A stretch of 64,000 nt of DNA from a virus (taxonomy: Duplodnaviria; Heunggongvirae; Uroviricota; Caudoviricetes), in IMG/VR virus record IMGVR_UViG_3300035659_000001; one strand, given 5' to 3'. Below, piece after piece: positions 1,965 through 46,283 of the stretch. Made by a program: the position numbers and the translations under genes. The notes beneath the pieces are model-generated. The model searched no databases, was not told the DNA's origin, and saw only the letters and a list, made by a program, of their open reading frames with translations. Each line of letters starts with the position of its first letter. Position 1 is the first letter of the stretch.

Positions 1965-2978
1965 ATGAATACTTTAAAATTAAAATATCAAACTAATAAA
2001 GAGTCTAAAAACATCATTTTAAATTACATGAAAAATCAAAATAATGTAATAAAATTCCTATACAATAGATTACAAGAGAACAAATTACTCTCACAAATAC
2101 AGCTCACTTCACTAGCTAATTCCATGAACAACATTTTCATAGACTCTTGGTTCAAACAAAGTGCTATGTATAAAGCTAAAGAATTGGATGAGAATGAAAA
2201 AGTGATATTTGGTGGCAAGAAATTGTTTTTTGAACGACTTAAGAAAAGAATAACAAAAGAAGAATTTCAAATAAAAAAATTGCTACCATTACATATTATT
2301 GGTGAGGCTTGCAAGAGTGGTAATCGTAAGTTTGAGTTTAATATTATTGAAGAGAATAAATTAATATTTAAACCTTGTTTTAAAACAAAAATAGAGCTTC
2401 AATTACCCAAATTAAGAAAAAACTACCAAAAAATACTATTTAAATTAGAACAAGCTACTACTGACAAAAAGTTACCAGTTACTATCTCGTTAGATTTAGA
2501 TTTTATTTATATCACTTACGATGAGAATTTTCTAAAACAAGAAATTGCAAGCAAAGTTAAAAATAGAATCATGACGCTTGATTTAAATCCTAATTTTATA
2601 GGTTTTTCCATAATTGATTGGAAAGAAGAAGATAGTAAGAGTATAATAAAGACGGGCTGTATAAGTATCAAGCAATTAAATGATAAACAATTTGAATTAA
2701 AAGATCTCAAAGTAAGTAGCGAAGATAGTAGAATGAAATATTTAGTCAATAAAAGAGTATTTGAAACATTTGAAGTAGCTAAATATTTAGTTAACATGGC
2801 TAGGCAATATCATGTAGAGAGTTTTGGTATAGAAGAATTGTCAATTAAGTCGAGTGACAAGGGAAAAGGAAGCAAGTATAATAGGTTAGTGAATAATTTA
2901 TGGAATAGAGGGAAATTAGTAAGTAATATAGAAAAGCGACTAAATATTTGTGGTATTAAACTAAGTGAGTTTTTATGA
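1965..2978 (+). pseudogene. tnpB: TnpB-related (IS200/IS605 accessory) nuclease, C-terminally truncated
   Basis: RuvC-I TLDLNPNFIG and RuvC-II GIEEL present; ORF stops at GIKLSEFL before RuvC-III. Confidence 0.65.
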
Positions 2979-3010
2979 ACAAATACCTTAAAATAGGTGA
3001 TAAACTCAGA

Positions 3011-17564: not shown

Positions 17565-17665
17565 CATTTCTACGCTTTTTGACGTGAATATATTTTTGAG
17601 AATAATTGTACACTTTGATGAAAATGTAATATATTATTACCATAAGATAAGACTTAAAAATTTAG

Positions 17666-17700
17666 AAAGCTCCGTTGGACAACCACCGGAGCTTTTTTTT
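17666..17700 (+). terminator. Hairpin plus U-tract overlapping the SD of the next gene
   Basis: AAAGCTCCG..CGGAGCTTT then T-run; GGAG lies in the 3' arm. Confidence 0.65.
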
Positions 17701-27158: not shown

Positions 27159-27594
27159 ACCGAAGAGGCGCAACGGGATAAAAAAGATTGTAGTTCAAAA
27201 CGTCAAGCCTTTGGCGGACGTTGTATGCCATAATTTTTCATCTGGAGATTATATGCCCGCCGAAGAGTTCTATCAACCGAATGAGTCAGGATCATTTACT
27301 TATGTTTTACAAAACAATAAATTAGCAAAGATAAGTATTGTTGATATCATAAACAAGCAACAAGAATCTTTTGAGATTAATTCTATACAAATTGAAAAGT
27401 AATAATTATTTTATAATTTCTAAAATAATACATGGTAGTGATTATCGGAAGTGCTCTTGGAGTTGTCTAGTTGTAAATAGAAACGTTGAAGAGAGAAGTT
27501 ACTTTTGTAACGATCAATAATTAGCAAATATTGTACTCTTAGTGGTCAATGATCATAATGGTTATTGACCACTTAATTTAACAAAAAGGATTGT

Positions 27595-27708
27595 ATGAGT
27601 TTCATTATTCGATTTTTACTTGAAGCATTTGCAACATCTGTTGTACTAGCCACAATTGCAACGTTTGCTATTACAGTGATTAATACAAGGAGATCACATA
27701 GAACTTAG
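27595..27708 (+). CDS. Putative Ile/Thr-rich leader peptide, 37 aa
   Basis: AAGGA SD; MSFIIRFLLEAFATSVVLATIATFAITVINTRRSHRT*. Confidence 0.6.
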   Translation: MSFIIRFLLEAFATSVVLATIATFAITVINTRRSHRT

Positions 27709-27770
27709 AGGTCAACTAAATACAAGGAAATATTTAAAGGGCCTCTAAAATGATTTAGGGGCCCTTTTTA
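27705..27770 (+). promoter_or_regulatory. Antiterminator/terminator (attenuator 1)
   Basis: TTAGAGGTC (27705-13) pairs GGCCTCTAA (27740-48), the 5' arm of terminator AAAGGGCCTCTAAA/TTTAGGGGCCCTTT-TT. Confidence 0.65.
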
Positions 27771-27781
27771 TTTGGTAAGGT

Positions 27782-27964
27782 ATGAAATATATGGAAAAAT
27801 TAATAGCTTTATTCTTGATATTACTGAATTGTTCTAGTAGTTTAGAGATAATAACCGATTCTATCCGAAATGTTCAAGAAATTAAAAGCAAAAAACAAAT
27901 TGTTAGAATAGATTCGACAATTGTTGATGGCAAAAAATTCTATGACGTACATTATAGGAACTAA
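27782..27964 (+). CDS. Small putative lipoprotein
   Basis: Hydrophobic N-terminus ending LLNC. Confidence 0.5.
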   Translation: MKYMEKLIALFLILLNCSSSLEIITDSIRNVQEIKSKKQIVRIDSTIVDGKKFYDVHYRN

Positions 27965-28033
27965 ATTATTATGACTTATTTGCTTGAAACAAAATTTTTA
28001 CAATATGATACGTTTACTGTTTAAGGAGCATGT

Positions 28034-28627
28034 ATGACCTCGGTTATTGTTTTAACTAGAGACTATCAATTTTGGGGAGAAATTGATTTAGAATCTAAAG
28101 GCAGACAAAGATTTTGGAAGTTATTATCAAAAGAAAAAATAGAAATCTTAGCTGCAGATGAATATGAAGAAATAGGTACTACATCTTTTAAAGTAAAAAA
28201 ACCGTTTGTTATTCGCTTACTAAAATTTGTAGGCTATAAAATAAAGAAATCAGAGATTAATTGGAGTGCTGAAGCTATTTTTGCAAGAGACAATAATGTA
28301 TGTCAATACTGGCATTATAATGAATATAGTAAGTCATTTAAATACCGTTGCAAAGATGGCGAAAGAACAATTGATCATTTAGAACCGAGGTCAAGAGGCG
28401 GAGAAAATACGTTTGAAAATACGGTCTGTGCATGTCATGACTGTAACGTGAATATTAAAAAAGATAGACCGCTAAAAGATACTGGTCTAAAATTAATAAG
28501 AAAGCCGTTTGTGCCAAAACAGAATAAAGATGATTTTGCAATTATAAAATTTGCGTATAATCCTAATAAACTATCACATAGAATATATGTTGAAAGAATA
28601 TTGGGAGGAGAAGTTTTAGGAGATTAG
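28034..28627 (+). CDS. HNH endonuclease (HNH_5-like)
   Basis: IFARDNNVCQY, TIDHLEPRSRGG.NTFENTVCACHDCN. Confidence 0.85.
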   Translation: MTSVIVLTRDYQFWGEIDLESKGRQRFWKLLSKEKIEILAADEYEEIGTTSFKVKKPFVIRLLKFVGYKIKKSEINWSAEAIFARDNNVCQYWHYNEYSKSFKYRCKDGERTIDHLEPRSRGGENTFENTVCACHDCNVNIKKDRPLKDTGLKLIRKPFVPKQNKDDFAIIKFAYNPNKLSHRIYVERILGGEVLGD

Positions 28628-28691
28628 CTCAGACAGTTAGAGCACAGTCCTGATAAGACTGAGGTGACTGGCGCGATACCAGTATCTCCTA
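28618..28691 (+). tRNA. tRNA-Ile (GAU)
   Basis: AGGAGAT/ATCTCCT; CAGTC-CTGATAA-GACTG; overlaps HNH stop. Confidence 0.85.
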
Positions 28692-28763
28692 TTTTTACAA
28701 TTTTAGAGTTGAATATGAACTTTATTTGTGACAATTAAGACAATTATGAAACAAGGAGCTTTT

Positions 28764-28940
28764 ATGATTGATGCTAAAATGTTAGTAGATAGTCAAGTTT
28801 GTGTTTCATTTGCAGAAGCTAGAAGTTTAATACAGAGTATGTCTGAAGAAAAACTAGTGCAACTATTGAAACAAAAGCAAGATCAACAATGGGGTCGTAA
28901 ACTTAAAAAATCTGTTAGATTAGTATGGCCTGAATTATGA
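28764..28940 (+). CDS. Hypothetical protein
   Basis: AAGGAG SD before MIDAK. Confidence 0.5.
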   Translation: MIDAKMLVDSQVCVSFAEARSLIQSMSEEKLVQLLKQKQDQQWGRKLKKSVRLVWPEL

Positions 28941-29188
28941 TTTATGTTGATGATTTGAAACAATATGATACTAAATTGAAAAATAAAACATGGTGTCATT
29001 TATGGGCTGATGATGTTTCAGAGTTACATGAATTTGCTCAGAAAATAGGTTTAAAACGCGAGTGGTTTCAAAATAAAAAATTATTTGCTCATTATGATTT
29101 AGTGTTAAATAAAAGAATATTAGCACTTGAAAACGGAGCAACATATATTAATTTAAAGCAATATTTAAAAACAAAAGTGCTACAGTAG
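28937..29188 (+). CDS. DUF4031-like protein
   Basis: IYVDD..WCHLWAD..ELHEFAQKIGLKREWFQ..HYDL. Confidence 0.85.
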   Translation: MIYVDDLKQYDTKLKNKTWCHLWADDVSELHEFAQKIGLKREWFQNKKLFAHYDLVLNKRILALENGATYINLKQYLKTKVLQ

Positions 29189-29251
29189 CTCAATTAGTAG
29201 AGTTCATCCTTTGTAACGATGATGTTGCGGGTGCGAGTCCTGCCTGTAGCT
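29179..29251 (+). tRNA. tRNA-Thr (UGU)
   Basis: GCTACAG/CTGTAGC; CATCC-TTTGTAA-CGATG. Confidence 0.85.
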
Positions 29252-29254
29252 TTT

Positions 29255-29292
29255 AAAACACGAGGTTGACAGTGCAAGTCTGTCCAGATCCA
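29255..29292 (+). pseudogene. Orphan tRNA 3' half
   Basis: ACACG-AGGTT-GACAG-TGCAAGT-CTGTC-CAGATCC-A, no 5' half. Confidence 0.6.
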
Positions 29293-29303
29293 TTATAGAT
29301 TTT

Positions 29304-29383
29304 GCCCGTATAGTCGAGTCTGCCTTCTAAGTAGATAATCGTAATTGGAACTGAAAATACTGGTTCGAATCCAGTTACGGGTA
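29304..29383 (+). ncRNA. tRNA-Arg(UCU)-like RNA with rearranged D arm
   Basis: GCCCGTA/TACGGGT acceptor; TCTGC-CTTCTAA-GTAGA precedes a D-loop-like TAATTGGA; canonical T arm. Confidence 0.7.
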
Positions 29384-29460
29384 TTAATTTTTTAAAGAAA
29401 GTGAGATATTTTTCTAAAGAAAGAATAGGTCAAATTTAATCCGAGTTAATCAATATCATA

Positions 29461-29482
29461 AAAAGCCAGATTTCTGGCTTTT
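29461..29482. terminator. Bidirectional-type hairpin after tRNA cluster
   Basis: AAAAGCCAG-ATTT-CTGGCTTTT. Confidence 0.6.
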
Positions 29483-30187
29483 GTTACGTCTAGAGCATTT
29501 TAAAAAGATATTTTGAACAAAACAGCCCCCATAATATCGTGCGCGCGTATAGACACGTGATTCAATGAAAATAAATTTTTCGATCAAGTTAAAACTTGAA
29601 TGTCCATTTGTAAACCTAGCAATAACGACAGCTGCATGCTATTCTAAATTCTTTGTTTACATTTTGCGAAGAGTTACTTTTCTTATGAAAAAATGGCAAA
29701 TTATAAATTGAAAATGCCTGTTTCTAACGCGATGCGTGCGCGCTAGTGCGATGTGCGCGTACACGCGCGAAAACAGACAATTACGATCTCTGCACGTGAA
29801 AGCTGCAACTAAAAATTATAGTGTGTTTACATTTAGGAAAAATTTGATGAATGTGGACAGTTGGTTTTGTAGTATCGCGATAATTTACATCTACGCGTTG
29901 AGAAATGTCAGTTGTCGTAGACTTTGTAGAAAAATTTAAAAATGAGATACTATTTAGTAATAACATTATAATTAGAATTTAAGTCGCCCAGTTCATAAAA
30001 AAAAAGTTTTTTAAGCATTCGTAAACTTTTGTTGAGAAAATGCATATAAAAAAATGAGCCTTTCGAAGAAAGGATCATGTCATTATGTACTCAAAAATAA
30101 GTCTATTCGTAAGTTAAGATCTAAGAGTTTCAATGAATACTCGATTAACATGAAATCTTGTAATTTATATAATTGTAAGCCGACAAA

Positions 30188-30910
30188 ATGCGAATATTTA
30201 TAACTGGTGATACTCATATACCTTATGATATTAGTAAACTTAATTCAACTAATTTCTCAGTTCAAAAAACGTTTAAAGAAGAAGCTGCTATAGTGATAGT
30301 ATGTGGTGATTTTGGTTTATTATGGAAAAATTATCTAGATAATGAAGAAGCATACTGGACTAAATGGTTGAATGAAAGAATGTACACTGTAGCATTTATT
30401 GATGGAAATCACGAGAACTTTGCTAGGTTGAATAGATTGTCTGAAGTAGAGATGTTTGGTGGTAAAGTTGGTAAAGTAAGTGACAAGATATATCATTTGA
30501 AAAGAGGAGAGATTTATAGCATAGATGGTAAGAAATTCTTTTGTATGGGCGGAGCTAGGAGTACTGATAAAAGTAGCAGGATTGTGAATATTAGTTGGTG
30601 GAAAGAAGAAGAGCATTCATATAAAGAGATTGAAAATGCATTGAGTAATTTAGAGAAGAACAATAATGAAGTAGATTATATAATAGCGCATACATTACCA
30701 GTAACTATGATATATAAATATTATGAGATTATTAAAGATGACGAGATACAGGAACAATACATTAAAGATAATATCGAAGATTCAGTTGCAAAGTTTTTGC
30801 AAGAAGTTTGTAATAAAGTGAAGTTTAAAGAGTATTTTTGTGGACATTTTCACGATGATAAGCAAATAGGTAATTTCAACATATTATTTGAAAAAATAAT
30901 TGAGATATAA
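30188..30910 (+). CDS. Calcineurin-like metallophosphoesterase
   Basis: GDTH, GDFG, DGNHEN, HT, GHFH. Confidence 0.9.
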   Translation: MRIFITGDTHIPYDISKLNSTNFSVQKTFKEEAAIVIVCGDFGLLWKNYLDNEEAYWTKWLNERMYTVAFIDGNHENFARLNRLSEVEMFGGKVGKVSDKIYHLKRGEIYSIDGKKFFCMGGARSTDKSSRIVNISWWKEEEHSYKEIENALSNLEKNNNEVDYIIAHTLPVTMIYKYYEIIKDDEIQEQYIKDNIEDSVAKFLQEVCNKVKFKEYFCGHFHDDKQIGNFNILFEKIIEI

Positions 30911-30965
30911 TAAAAATATGTTTCTTTGACTAAAATGATATATATTAAGTATAGGTGATGAAATT

Positions 30966-31043
30966 ATGAAAAATCTTAATTCAAACAGTTTATATCGGCT
31001 AGGTCAACGACAACCGCGACCAAAAGGCAAGAATAATGTTTGA
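30966..31043 (+). CDS. Putative Gln/Pro/Arg leader peptide, 25 aa
   Basis: AGGTGA SD; MKNLNSNSLYRLGQRQPRPKGKNNV*. Confidence 0.6.
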   Translation: MKNLNSNSLYRLGQRQPRPKGKNNV

Positions 31044-31110
31044 GTGAGATAGTGTAGAAGTTATTGAATAAAAAAAGAGTCTCACTTGAAAAAGAGGGAC
31101 TCTTTTTTTA
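31041..31110 (+). promoter_or_regulatory. Antiterminator/terminator (attenuator 2)
   Basis: TGAGTGAGAT (31041-50) pairs GTCTCACTTG (31079-88) in terminator AAAAAAGAGTCTC..GGGACTCTTTTTTT. Confidence 0.7.
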
Positions 31111-31121
31111 TTTGGAATAAA

Positions 31122-31194
31122 CGGGGCGTAGCTCAATTGGCTGAGCACATGATTTGGGTTCATGCGGTTATCAGTTCGACTCTGATTGCCCCGA
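31122..31194 (+). tRNA. tRNA-Pro (UGG)
   Basis: CGGGGCG/TGCCCCG; CATGA-TTTGGGT-TCATG. Confidence 0.9.
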
Positions 31195-31225
31195 TAAATC
31201 ATTGGATTAATGATTGAAAATATAC

Positions 31226-31300
31226 TGGAGCATGGTGTAATTGGCAACACAGAAGCCCTTGGAGTTTCTTTTCATGGTTCGAGTCCATGTGCTCCAGCCA
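31226..31300 (+). tRNA. tRNA-Gln (UUG), C33
   Basis: TGGAGCA/TGCTCCA GCCA; GAAGC-CCTTGGA-GTTTC. Confidence 0.85.
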
Positions 31301-31545
31301 ATTTTGAAATTATTAGAAAATTATAATGATAGTGAAATATTATCTAAGATAAAAAAACTACTGTAGTCTTCTTCAATTTATTTTAATCTTTTACAAATTT
31401 ATTTTCTTTTCATTGTAAAACTATTTGATTTAAATAACTTAATTAAGAGATTATTTTATGTTAAAAGTTTTAATAAACTAAATTTGTTCATCAACATTTA
31501 GTTTTTGATTTTAAAGCTTGTAAATTGATTAAAGGGAGTATAGTT

Positions 31546-43671: not shown

Positions 43672-44400
43672 ATGTTAACAAGAGATAGTTTATTAACTGT
43701 TGCAGGTGTTTCAGAACCACCATCATCTACAATATTACCGTTTTCGCATATTCATCCAAAAGCACATTTAACTACAAAACATATAGTTTCTAAAGGTGGA
43801 GTTTCTACGCCAGTTTTTGACAATATTAAAGAGCAAAGTGCATCTTCAGGAGATGCACCACTTTTATTAATAAATATACCCATGAGTATGAGTTTAAATG
43901 AAGGTGATGATTTGTTTTTATCTGCTGCTGCTTATGGTAGTGAACCTTTAAATTATCAATGGAAGAAAAACAATATTGATATTACTGGTGCAACAAGTTC
44001 TGTTTATCAAAAATTTAATGTTCAAGCAAGTGATGAAGCTGCTTATAAATGTGTAGTTACAAATGTTTATGGTTCAACTGTAAGTCATGTATGTGAAGTT
44101 ACTGTTGTTACTGCTGTTACTCAGTATACAGTTGATTTTACTGCTGGAGCTGGTGGAAGCATTAGCGGAAGCACAAGTCAACTTGTTGATGAGGGTGATG
44201 ATTGTACTGCTGTTGAAGCTATGCCAAATGAAGGATATGAATTTAATGGTTGGACTGAAGATGTTACAAGTTCTGAGAATCCATTAACAGTTCATAATGT
44301 GGTGACAAATATGAATATTACAGCAAATTTTATATTAATACCACCAGTGGGACCTAATATGAATGTGCTTAATTATTATTATAATCAAATGAATGAATAA
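43672..44400 (+). CDS. Ig-domain + InlB B-repeat protein
   Basis: PLNYQWKKN..GATS..YKCVVTN; PNEGYEFNGW..ENPLTV..ITANF. Confidence 0.8.
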   Translation: MLTRDSLLTVAGVSEPPSSTILPFSHIHPKAHLTTKHIVSKGGVSTPVFDNIKEQSASSGDAPLLLINIPMSMSLNEGDDLFLSAAAYGSEPLNYQWKKNNIDITGATSSVYQKFNVQASDEAAYKCVVTNVYGSTVSHVCEVTVVTAVTQYTVDFTAGAGGSISGSTSQLVDEGDDCTAVEAMPNEGYEFNGWTEDVTSSENPLTVHNVVTNMNITANFILIPPVGPNMNVLNYYYNQMNE

Positions 44401-46283
44401 TGCAACCATTAATTGAAAATAGAGATTACGGTACGTCTGGTTTAGATCAACTTGAAAAACAGTATGTTAGTCTACCAGACATGTTACAAAAACAAGTCAA
44501 ACGACAATTTAAAAATAGAGTAAAGGAGTCAAACATGAGCAATGTTGAAAAAATTGCTACAGAGATTTTGGCTGCAGAAGAGAAAGAGGCAGTGTCGCCA
44601 AAAGGATGGAAGGGAACCACTGAGGCTATGAAATCGCATAAAAATATTACAAACCCATGGGCATTATGTTTTACTGCAGATACAAAAGTTCCATTGTTAG
44701 ATGGTAGAGTATTAACAATGATTGAATTGGTTAAAGAATTTGGAAACGATAAAGATACTTATGTTTATTCGTATGACATTGAAAATGATAAAGTTGTTGT
44801 TGGTCGAGCATTTAATTTTCATAAAACTGCAGAAAACGCTAATGTGCTTGAAATAGAATTAGACAATGGACAGAAAATAAAATGCACATTATTTCATAAA
44901 TTTTTAATGCAAGATGGATCATATAAAGAAGCAAAAAATTTAAAGTCAAACGATTCATTAATGCCAATTTATTTTGACAGGCATGAAGGATCATTTTGTC
45001 AAGATTATAAAAGAGTGTGGTCAAAAGATGGTAAAAAACATTTTGTTCATCGTATAGTTGCTGCATATAATTTTGGTAAAGAATGGCAATCTGGGTTTAT
45101 TAATCATCATTATGACTTTAATAAAGACAATAATCATCCAGAAAATATTAAAATCATGACAGCTAGTGATCATTCTAAATTTCATAGACAACAAGATGGT
45201 GCTAAGCATTTAATAGAATATATTAGATCTGAAAAAGGACGAAAAATGTCGTCTATTAATGGCAAGAAAAACATGAAAAAATTATGGCAAGAGCAAAGAG
45301 AACAACAAATTGAAAATTGTAAAAAAAATGGGCAATTAGGCGCAGAAACAGGAAGAAAAGCATTGTTAAAATTTAATAATTCACAAAAAACTAAAGATGC
45401 TGTTGCTGAAAGAACTCTTAATGGTTCAATGACAAAAGGTAAAATTACAAAAATAGCAGCAAAAATAATTTCTTTAGGATTAGATGTTAATGAAGCGACT
45501 TGGAGTGAGCACAAAGGATATGCTTCAAGCCCTAATTTTAGTACGGCTATTGAATTATTTAATGATGTAGAAACATTAAAAAAATACGCAAAAGACAGAA
45601 GTTTATATGGCAGTATGATAAAGTCTAGAATTTTAAAAGTTGCAAAAAGAATATTAGATGCTGTACTTCCAATTAATGAAGACTCCTGGGAACGATTTAG
45701 ACGAACCAGAAAGAATCCGCCATTTGATAAAGCAATAGAAAAATTTGGATCTATTGACAATATTGTTTTTGAGACTGAAAAAAGACATAATATGATTGTA
45801 AATCATAAAGTTATTAATGTTAGATTGATTGATATTAAAGAAGATGTTTATGATTTTACAGTTGATAAATATCACAATTTTGCGCTTGATGCAGGTGTTT
45901 TTGTTCATAATAGTTGGTGGATGAGTAAGAAAAAACCTGGAGAATCATGGGGCAAAGGTGGAAAATTAACTAAAAAGCCAGAGCCTCATTATAAAGAGAA
46001 AAAATCTTTTGATGAAAAAGTTTCAGCTATTATTGAAATGGTAGAACCAGCAGAAGTATCTGTAGAAGAATTTTCTTTGCCAATGGTTGATTCAACAAAA
46101 AAATATTCTACTGAAGATTCAATAAAAACTGATGATGGATATATCACTATCAAATCTAATTATGATGAAAAAAATGGTGAGCCATTATTGGAAGAATATA
46201 TTGTTGACAAAAATGGAGATGTCGAAACATATAATGATGTTGAATCATTTGCTCAAAGATTAATAAGTGAAGGATTGTTGTAA
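44400..46283 (+). CDS. Intein-containing hypothetical (likely virion) protein; alternative start 44535
   Basis: Extein ..NPWAL / SWWMSKK.. split by intein; AAGGAG SD before M46. Confidence 0.8.
   Translation: MQPLIENRDYGTSGLDQLEKQYVSLPDMLQKQVKRQFKNRVKESNMSNVEKIATEILAAEEKEAVSPKGWKGTTEAMKSHKNITNPWALCFTADTKVPLLDGRVLTMIELVKEFGNDKDTYVYSYDIENDKVVVGRAFNFHKTAENANVLEIELDNGQKIKCTLFHKFLMQDGSYKEAKNLKSNDSLMPIYFDRHEGSFCQDYKRVWSKDGKKHFVHRIVAAYNFGKEWQSGFINHHYDFNKDNNHPENIKIMTASDHSKFHRQQDGAKHLIEYIRSEKGRKMSSINGKKNMKKLWQEQREQQIENCKKNGQLGAETGRKALLKFNNSQKTKDAVAERTLNGSMTKGKITKIAAKIISLGLDVNEATWSEHKGYASSPNFSTAIELFNDVETLKKYAKDRSLYGSMIKSRILKVAKRILDAVLPINEDSWERFRRTRKNPPFDKAIEKFGSIDNIVFETEKRHNMIVNHKVINVRLIDIKEDVYDFTVDKYHNFALDAGVFVHNSWWMSKKKPGESWGKGGKLTKKPEPHYKEKKSFDEKVSAIIEMVEPAEVSVEEFSLPMVDSTKKYSTEDSIKTDDGYITIKSNYDEKNGEPLLEEYIVDKNGDVETYNDVESFAQRLISEGLL
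44667..45911 (+). mobile_element. Intein (415 aa) with HNH homing endonuclease
   Basis: C1 CFTADTKV, block B CTLFHKF, HNH FVHRIVA..HHYDFNKDNNHPENI, C-end VYDFTVDKYHNF..VHN/S. Confidence 0.92.

Follow-up and report, generated by a model that had tools for sequence, protein, structure and literature searches.

The question raised by positions 27595-27775 of the IMG/VR virus record IMGVR_UViG_3300035659_000001 (Caudoviricetes) is whether a short open reading frame (ORF), followed by an intrinsic terminator and a group of tRNA genes, is a leader peptide whose translation determines if those tRNA genes are transcribed. The whole stretch of DNA that was analysed, here called the window, comprises 64,000 nucleotides (nt) with a GC content of about 30%, and its coding is nearly all on the + strand, to which also the leader, its terminator and the tRNA unit belong. 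The source is probably an uncultured phage of large size. The window carries 16-17 tRNA genes at 18.6-31.3 kb, with HNH and GIY-YIG homing-endonuclease genes placed among them together with many ORFs without a family. From comparison of sequences the leader is tentatively read as a ribosome-mediated, codon-sensing transcription attenuator that would gate a unit of Ile, Thr, (Ala) and Arg tRNAs, and translation-dependent attenuation in some form is considered rather probable.

Three metagenome contigs were found to span the leader, L002, L003 and L008. The neighbouring genes and a profile served as queries, and it was the profile that recovered L008 as the fourth allele. The four alleles are of two types, one (W) formed by the window and L008 and the other (L) by L002 and L003, and the peptides of the L type have 44% (L002) and 36% (L003) amino-acid identity with the window peptide. 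Two related contigs, L004 and L005, end short of the leader, and further related contigs are present in Logan. The window and L002 agree at 100% of positions in the 5' untranslated region, 95% in the terminator and 94% in the next ORF; in the leader ORF the identity is 76.5%, and five indels are present. The leader segment looks as if it had been exchanged as a mosaic between the two allele types. Neutral evolution was dropped as the cause of the faster divergence of the leader, which mosaic recombination between the two types explains better.

The leader ORF (27595-27708) runs for 37 codons up to a TAG stop (27706-27708), and it is called as a gene also in the JGI and Logan data. Its Shine-Dalgarno sequence AAGGA (27586-27590) lies in the block AAAAGGATTGTATGAGT, which is invariant in the four alleles, as is the ATG, and the frame is open at 31-37 codons in all of them. 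All seven internal indels among the alleles are multiples of three (9, 6, 6, 3, 18, 6 and 3 nt), for which the probability without coding constraint is about (1/3)^7. The sole out-of-frame indel, of 2 nt, is situated at the stop codon and exchanges a TAG overlapping the arm of the hairpin described below for a TAA abutting it. With the reading frame unbroken by the internal indels, the length kept and both the Shine-Dalgarno sequence and the ATG invariant, the ORF is most likely translated and under frame selection.

The sequence-only reading had described five Ile codons (all ATT), six Thr codons (four ACA) and AGG/AGA Arg codons concentrated toward the 3' half of a 37-codon ORF, and the codon listing bears this out. 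The remaining Thr codons are one ACG and one ACT, the Arg codons are CGA, AGG, AGA and AGA, and Ile, Thr and Arg together take 11 of the final 19 codons. Five Ala codons, uncounted in that description, are also present. The Thr, Ile, Ala and Arg codons form a cluster at codons 20-33 (27652-27693), and according to the geometry of ribosome reach a stall there would free the antiterminator arm. These four amino acids account for 20/37 codons in the window, 20/36 in L008, 16/37 in L002 and 15/31 in L003, that is, 48-56% in three alleles and 43% in L002. Segments of the same length from the phage's own proteins reach such leader contents in 0.06%, 1.1% and 0.4% of cases, the value for the 20/37 of the window being 0.06%, and hydrophobic segments (n = 126-156) of the phage proteins reach them in 0-1.3%. 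Thr alone forms 16-23% of the leaders versus 4.6% of the hydrophobic 19-mers of the phage.

For the codon-match test the tRNAs of the window were split into six blocks, of which the one just downstream of the leader consists of Ile, Thr, Ala and Arg. This block was the most enriched of the six in each of the four alleles. Such a top ranking is reached by chance in 12.5% of random segments and 11.4% of hydrophobic ones, and an enrichment at least as high in 0.03-0.8% of the phage-protein segments. The composition of the leader fits the tRNA block behind it. Also the choice among synonymous codons is uneven: over the four alleles 17/19 Ile codons are ATT and 24/26 Thr codons are ACA or ACG, against a background of about 60% and 53%, respectively, the phage otherwise using ATA for 40% of Ile and ACT for 46% of Thr.

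The stop codon of the leader is contained in TTAGAGGTC (27705-27713), the 5' arm of a hairpin competing with the terminator, and the core of this arm, AGAGGTC, is invariant in the four alleles. The arm can pair with the segment GGCCTCTAA (27740-27748), which is at once the 3' arm of the putative antiterminator and a part of the terminator 5' arm. The pairing consists of eight Watson-Crick pairs and one G-U pair, so that the earlier claim of a TAG stop within a sequence forming 9 base pairs (bp) with the terminator held. The intrinsic terminator itself (27736-27775; -20.7 kcal/mol) has a 14-bp stem (27736-27767) with a 4-nt loop and a U tract, and it shows one compensatory change from G-C to A-U between alleles. 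The stop codon is in or against AGAGGTC in all four alleles, TAG overlapping the arm in the W type and TAA abutting it in the L type, and this position is held in spite of a different stop codon, frame relation and local sequence in the two types.

When the nascent transcript was folded up to the terminator loop, all four alleles produced a two-helix hairpin with an outer stem AGAGGUC:GGCCUCU (9 bp in the W type) and an inner 6-bp A-U helix (27717-27736 in the window). Over the four alleles the energies of this hairpin are -14.8, -13.5, -11.6 and -11.0 kcal/mol, compared with -17 to -21 kcal/mol for the terminator. Shuffling of the upstream 45 nt yielded an equally good sequestering structure 0, 0 and 1 times per 1000 in three alleles, and the z value of the competing hairpin is -4.3. 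In stepwise folding the minimum-energy structure is the antiterminator hairpin as long as the transcript ends 38-54 nt beyond the stop codon, and the terminator overtakes it only on completion of the terminator 3' arm. The refolding barrier, 8-10 kcal/mol by a heuristic direct-path estimate, could last about as long as the polymerase dwells at the U tract. In these folding models the antiterminator and the terminator are mutually exclusive and the nascent fold favours the antiterminator, and a translating ribosome would presumably decide between them. One A-U pair of the inner helix has changed to U-A between the allele types, which is weak support because the alignment has an indel there. The remaining strong + strand terminators of the window all follow long genes and have no short ORF before them, and an alternative pairing was found with one of them only, a weak one (p ~0.03).

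The footprint of a ribosome extends about 12 nt to the 3' side of the A site. On this geometry a ribosome whose A site holds the stop codon should cover all 7-9 nt of the arm in either allele type, while one with the A site at codons 20-33 should leave the arm free. Codons 36-37 (AGA and ACT) are too near the arm and thus unfit as sensors. The Arg codons as a whole were found doubtful as sensors, as they are unconserved and codons 36-37 are within ribosome reach of the arm.

Downstream of the terminator, the tRNA-Ile(GAU), tRNA-Thr(UGU) and Arg(UCU)-like RNA claimed by the sequence-only reading were all found on the same strand. The tRNA-Ile (28617-28692; ARAGORN, Rfam 53.3 bits) and the tRNA-Thr (29179-29251; ARAGORN and Rfam) are recognised as tRNAs. 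The Arg(UCU)-like RNA (29304-29383) is an aberrant one: it scores 37.2 bits with the Rfam tRNA model (gathering score 29) and is missed by ARAGORN. Its D arm is replaced by 5 nt, and its variable region is longer than normal by about 20 nt. Between the tRNA-Thr and this RNA there is a 3'-half remnant of a tRNA-Ala(UGC) (29253-29293), recognised by alignment with the intact tRNA-Ala at L003:2053-2125 and left by a 42-nt deletion. L003 has the full downstream set, namely Ile, Thr, Ala(UGC) and, at L003:2134-2210 in the matching position, a canonical tRNA-Arg(UCU), the sequence of which is largely unrelated to the Arg-like RNA of the window. To the earlier description it must be added that about 850 nt, holding a 57-amino-acid ORF and an HNH gene, separate the terminator from the first tRNA.

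The first gene past the terminator is this 57-amino-acid lipoprotein-like ORF (27791-27964; homologs P0001-P0003 at 86-93% identity). The U tract ends at 27775, 15 nt 5' of its ATG (27791), which has a ribosome-binding site, and there is no space for a promoter in between. It is followed by the HNH homing-endonuclease gene (28034-28627; PHROG HNH families), the 3' end of which overlaps the tRNA-Ile, and after the tRNA-Ile by a 58-amino-acid ORF and an 83-amino-acid DUF4031 ORF (28764-29188), the latter overlapping the tRNA-Thr by 10 nt. Because the HNH and DUF4031 ORFs overlap both tRNAs, the tRNA-Ile and tRNA-Thr must be cut from longer, mRNA-containing transcripts. The unit closes with a terminator-like hairpin (29461-29482; -12.2 kcal/mol, z = -3.9), which is identical in L003 up to the stem 3' arm, where the compared stretch ends. 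Sigma-70-like matches in the unit are at chance level. From this layout co-transcription of the tRNA unit from the leader is plausible.

The scheme that we infer, in its stalling, the resulting readthrough, the co-transcription with the tRNAs and the physiological role, would run as follows. With rapid decoding of the Thr, Ile and Ala codons, the ribosome would reach the stop codon and cover the arm, the terminator at 27736-27775 would form and transcription would end. When decoding is slow, the ribosome would stall at codons 20-33. A shortage of tRNA-Thr(UGU) or tRNA-Ile(GAU), or a lack of charging, could bring this about, for instance once infection has depleted the host tRNA. With the arm then free, the antiterminator would form first and hold the shared segment, and RNA polymerase would read on. 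The resulting transcript would contain the 57-amino-acid ORF, the HNH gene, tRNA-Ile, the two small ORFs, tRNA-Thr, (tRNA-Ala) and tRNA-Arg up to the hairpin at 29461-29482, and the new tRNA would relieve the stall, closing a negative feedback loop. As there is no conserved region-1 hairpin, the predicted default without translation would be readthrough, unlike in trp.

Features by which ribosome-mediated attenuators are recognised, namely a short ORF with a ribosome-binding site under coding constraint, codons tied to the regulated genes and an intrinsic terminator between the leader and these genes, were found at the locus; an anti-antiterminator or pause hairpin (region 1:2) was not. The attenuator proposed by the sequence-only reading is partly supported, its Arg part is weak, and the mechanism is well motivated yet unproven.

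A parallel layout with a different, again matching codon set had also been claimed for positions 30966-31110, and this was confirmed, the leader of this sister element being most enriched in its own Pro/Gln block. In the sister element a small ORF is preceded by a ribosome-binding site and stops within the antiterminator arm, and a strong terminator and codon-matched tRNA genes follow. It differs from the leader at 27595 in that it lies 12 nt before its own tRNAs and has a promoter-like site upstream, whereas at 27595 two protein genes intervene and the peptide is hydrophobic. The terminators of these two candidate attenuators have in common the tail TTTTTATTTGG, after which the sequence is A-rich (27765-27780 and 31103-31118), while the remaining terminators of the window end in T8GC. 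The shared tail may point to a common origin of both elements.

A wider generalisation is put forward more tentatively still: in giant phages each tRNA block might stand behind a leader written in the codons of that block and be transcribed only when these codons are decoded slowly. Slow decoding would arise for example from host tRNA degradation or cutting by anticodon nucleases, and the present locus would be the sensor for Thr, Ile, Ala and Arg. If this is true, phages monitor for each codon how well the infected cell can decode it and replenish tRNAs as needed, with compact and portable sensors of tRNA availability, and the finding bears directly on the old problem of what phages gain from their tRNA genes. 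The reasons considered for carrying them are codon compensation, replacement after host shutdown and escape from tRNA-targeting defences, and loss or cleavage of tRNA during infection is a plausible selective context for an attenuator (PMC10264068).

In the literature no description was found of leader-peptide attenuation of tRNA genes or of such attenuation in phages. For amino-acid operons and a few synthetase genes leader-peptide attenuation is textbook knowledge. The element resembles E. coli thrL and ilvGMEDA/ilvBN, as generally known, in having a short leader that is translated and in which Thr and Ile (and Ala) codons are interspersed, in its terminator opposed to an exclusive upstream hairpin, in the stop codon near the antiterminator arm and in similar energies. 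Also the trp attenuator has energies similar to those of the phage element, about -12 for 2:3 and -20 for 3:4. The phage element differs from thrL and ilv in having no sequence or Rfam relationship to them and no region-1 or pause hairpin, in the tRNA genes and phage ORFs that stand behind the leader instead of biosynthetic enzymes, and in being phage-borne. The Rfam Thr_leader family (RF00506) gave no match at 27595-27775 even at E <= 1 when 27400-31500 was searched, the sole match being one of 21.8 bits (gathering score 55) at the sister element. T-box riboswitches are alike in that readthrough rises when a specific tRNA is uncharged, but they bind the tRNA directly and have a conserved fold, whereas the phage element would sense through the ribosome, and neither the gathering-score nor the E-value searches of the locus gave an Rfam T-box match. 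The pheST operon with its pheM leader and hisS/hisZ are comparable in that leader-peptide attenuation there controls genes of the translation apparatus, the aminoacyl-tRNA synthetases, and decoding of the amino acid served is sensed to give feedback on tRNA charging (PMC2965389). In these systems, however, the product is a synthetase and not a tRNA, one amino acid is sensed, and the genes are bacterial, chromosomal and near their promoter.

Several observations weigh against the reading of the leader as a codon-sensing attenuator. The allele comparisons cover two deep lineages only. The outer stem of the antiterminator is invariant in the four alleles and shows no covariation, an invariance that itself speaks neither for nor against an antiterminator. 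Conservation of the 9-bp pairing, on which the sequence-only reading had made its case depend, stood in part: the 9 bp are retained in L008 and shrink to the 7-bp core AGAGGTC:GGCCTCT in L002 and L003. No region-1 or pause hairpin conserved across the alleles was found when a pairing partner of the arm was sought inside the ORF, and a small hairpin in the leader ORF of the window is not retained in L002. The Arg codons are not conserved, alleles of the L type having a single AGA, and L008 and L003 have one ATA Ile codon apiece; the support from codon choice is soft because of these ATA codons and because a modified U34 could read ACT. Downstream, the tRNA-Ala of the window is dead and its tRNA-Arg aberrant, and the first tRNA is situated about 850 nt 3' of the terminator behind two protein genes, one of them mobile. 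Two weak promoter-like sites, in the HNH gene (28465-28493) and in the DUF4031 gene (29120-29149), both retained in L003, could drive the tRNAs independently, and the comparison of the alleles revealed no conserved promoter upstream of the leader. Finally, the peptides of the window and L008 have the look of a single-pass membrane helix that carries a basic tail, and they are placed amid lipoprotein-like genes.

This last point leads to the alternative that the ORF is an ordinary gene of a small membrane peptide, with an ordinary and perhaps leaky terminator that ends or punctuates the upstream operon, the Thr, Ile and Ala residues forming a beta-branched transmembrane helix and the complementarity being non-regulatory. 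It is the main rival of the attenuator reading and is considered somewhat less likely. A hydrophobic core followed by a basic tail is present in all alleles, with hydrophobicity scores (KD19) of 2.15 in the window and 2.0 in L008, the neighbouring genes encode lipoprotein-like small proteins, and conservation of the frame suits any translated gene, as the missing covariation in the antiterminator suits a gene of this kind. The L-type peptides are only borderline hydrophobic, however, with KD19 of 1.56 in L002 and 1.47 in L003 and with Gln, Glu and Asn in the segment, and L003 is without six N-terminal residues. Homologs that keep the hydrophobicity and not the Ile and Thr codons had been named in advance as speaking against attenuation, and the alleles show the opposite pattern: L002 and L003 have seven Thr and four to five Ile codons, and it is the hydrophobicity that drops. 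The Thr share of the leaders is three to five times that in the hydrophobic segments of the phage. A membrane peptide would explain neither the parallel design at 30966-31110 nor a competing hairpin that starts at the stop codon and, in three alleles, outdoes 999-1000 of 1000 shuffles. Also family evidence is missing for it, as neither PHROG nor any other family matched the peptide and the ESM Atlas gave sub-threshold look-alikes only.

According to another alternative, the element is a translation-coupled attenuator without codon specificity, or one serving protein genes, so that readthrough would report general translation capacity or initiation on the leader, and the tRNAs would come mainly from internal promoters. 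A translated ORF with its stop codon in the antiterminator arm must physically affect the hairpin, the first genes past the terminator do encode proteins, and the weak promoter-like sites are placed 5' of both tRNA-Ile and tRNA-Thr; furthermore, neither Arg nor the all-ATT usage of Ile is conserved. Yet the composition fits the adjacent tRNA block in four alleles and that of the sister element its own block, and the promoter-like matches are at chance level. In L003 (672-790) the 57-amino-acid ORF is broken by a nonsense codon and a deletion, but the leader and terminator upstream of it are intact, which argues against the element being there for this ORF. The alternative is regarded as rather improbable. 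That the ORF is a chance one in a non-coding leader or 3' untranslated region, where the RNA structures alone matter, would suit its shortness, its AT-richness, the absence of a protein family and its divergence faster than that of the flanks, but is essentially excluded by the conservation of the frame, with 7/7 internal indels in frame, the Shine-Dalgarno sequence and ATG invariant and the length held across 44% identity.

Just 5' of the leader ribosome-binding site the window has a 15-bp hairpin or palindrome (27541-27573; -19.8 kcal/mol, z = -6.2). It is 100% identical in L002 and cleanly missing from L003 and L008. It was considered as region 1 of the switch and rejected, because L003 and L008 do without it; it is optional and outside the switch, and may serve as an operator, as a processing site or to stabilise the 5' end.

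Among cultured phages no close relative of the window was found: megablast gave no match, blastn one 65-nt tRNA-like match, and tblastn with a large ORF none. Scans of IMG/VR with three proteins and with the upstream palindrome gave no relative of the locus, L001 being an unrelated context. The scan of metagenomes with the terminator pattern produced no matches, and that with the HNH protein unrelated contexts only (L006 and L007).

Within the downstream unit the HNH and DUF4031 ORFs both run about 10 nt into the next tRNA gene (28617-28627 and 29179-29188), and the processing of the tRNA by RNase P would therefore remove the end of the mRNA coding region. The tRNA-Ile and tRNA-Thr genes at matching positions in L003, L004 and L005 are quite different in sequence from those at 28600-29300 of the window. 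In the same comparison extra small ORFs and a DUF559-like endonuclease gene have been gained or lost, and the tRNA region is highly mosaic. Between the closing hairpin and a metallophosphoesterase gene the window has about 700 nt (29485-30187) without a convincing ORF and without an Rfam match. The first bases of this stretch align with those of its counterpart in L003 (2300-3008), and short ORFs of L003 in 2228-3001 resemble those of the window.

Elsewhere in the window, a promoter-like site (10/12 matches) with a strong terminator within about 90 nt is present at 17579-17700, where neither a matching small ORF nor a competing hairpin was found. It precedes an ORF starting with a C2H2-like zinc-finger motif and a His-Asp-Trp-Gly-Glu tRNA block. 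Another ORF, at 44400-46283, has an intein splicing domain enclosing an HNH_3 endonuclease (Pfam).

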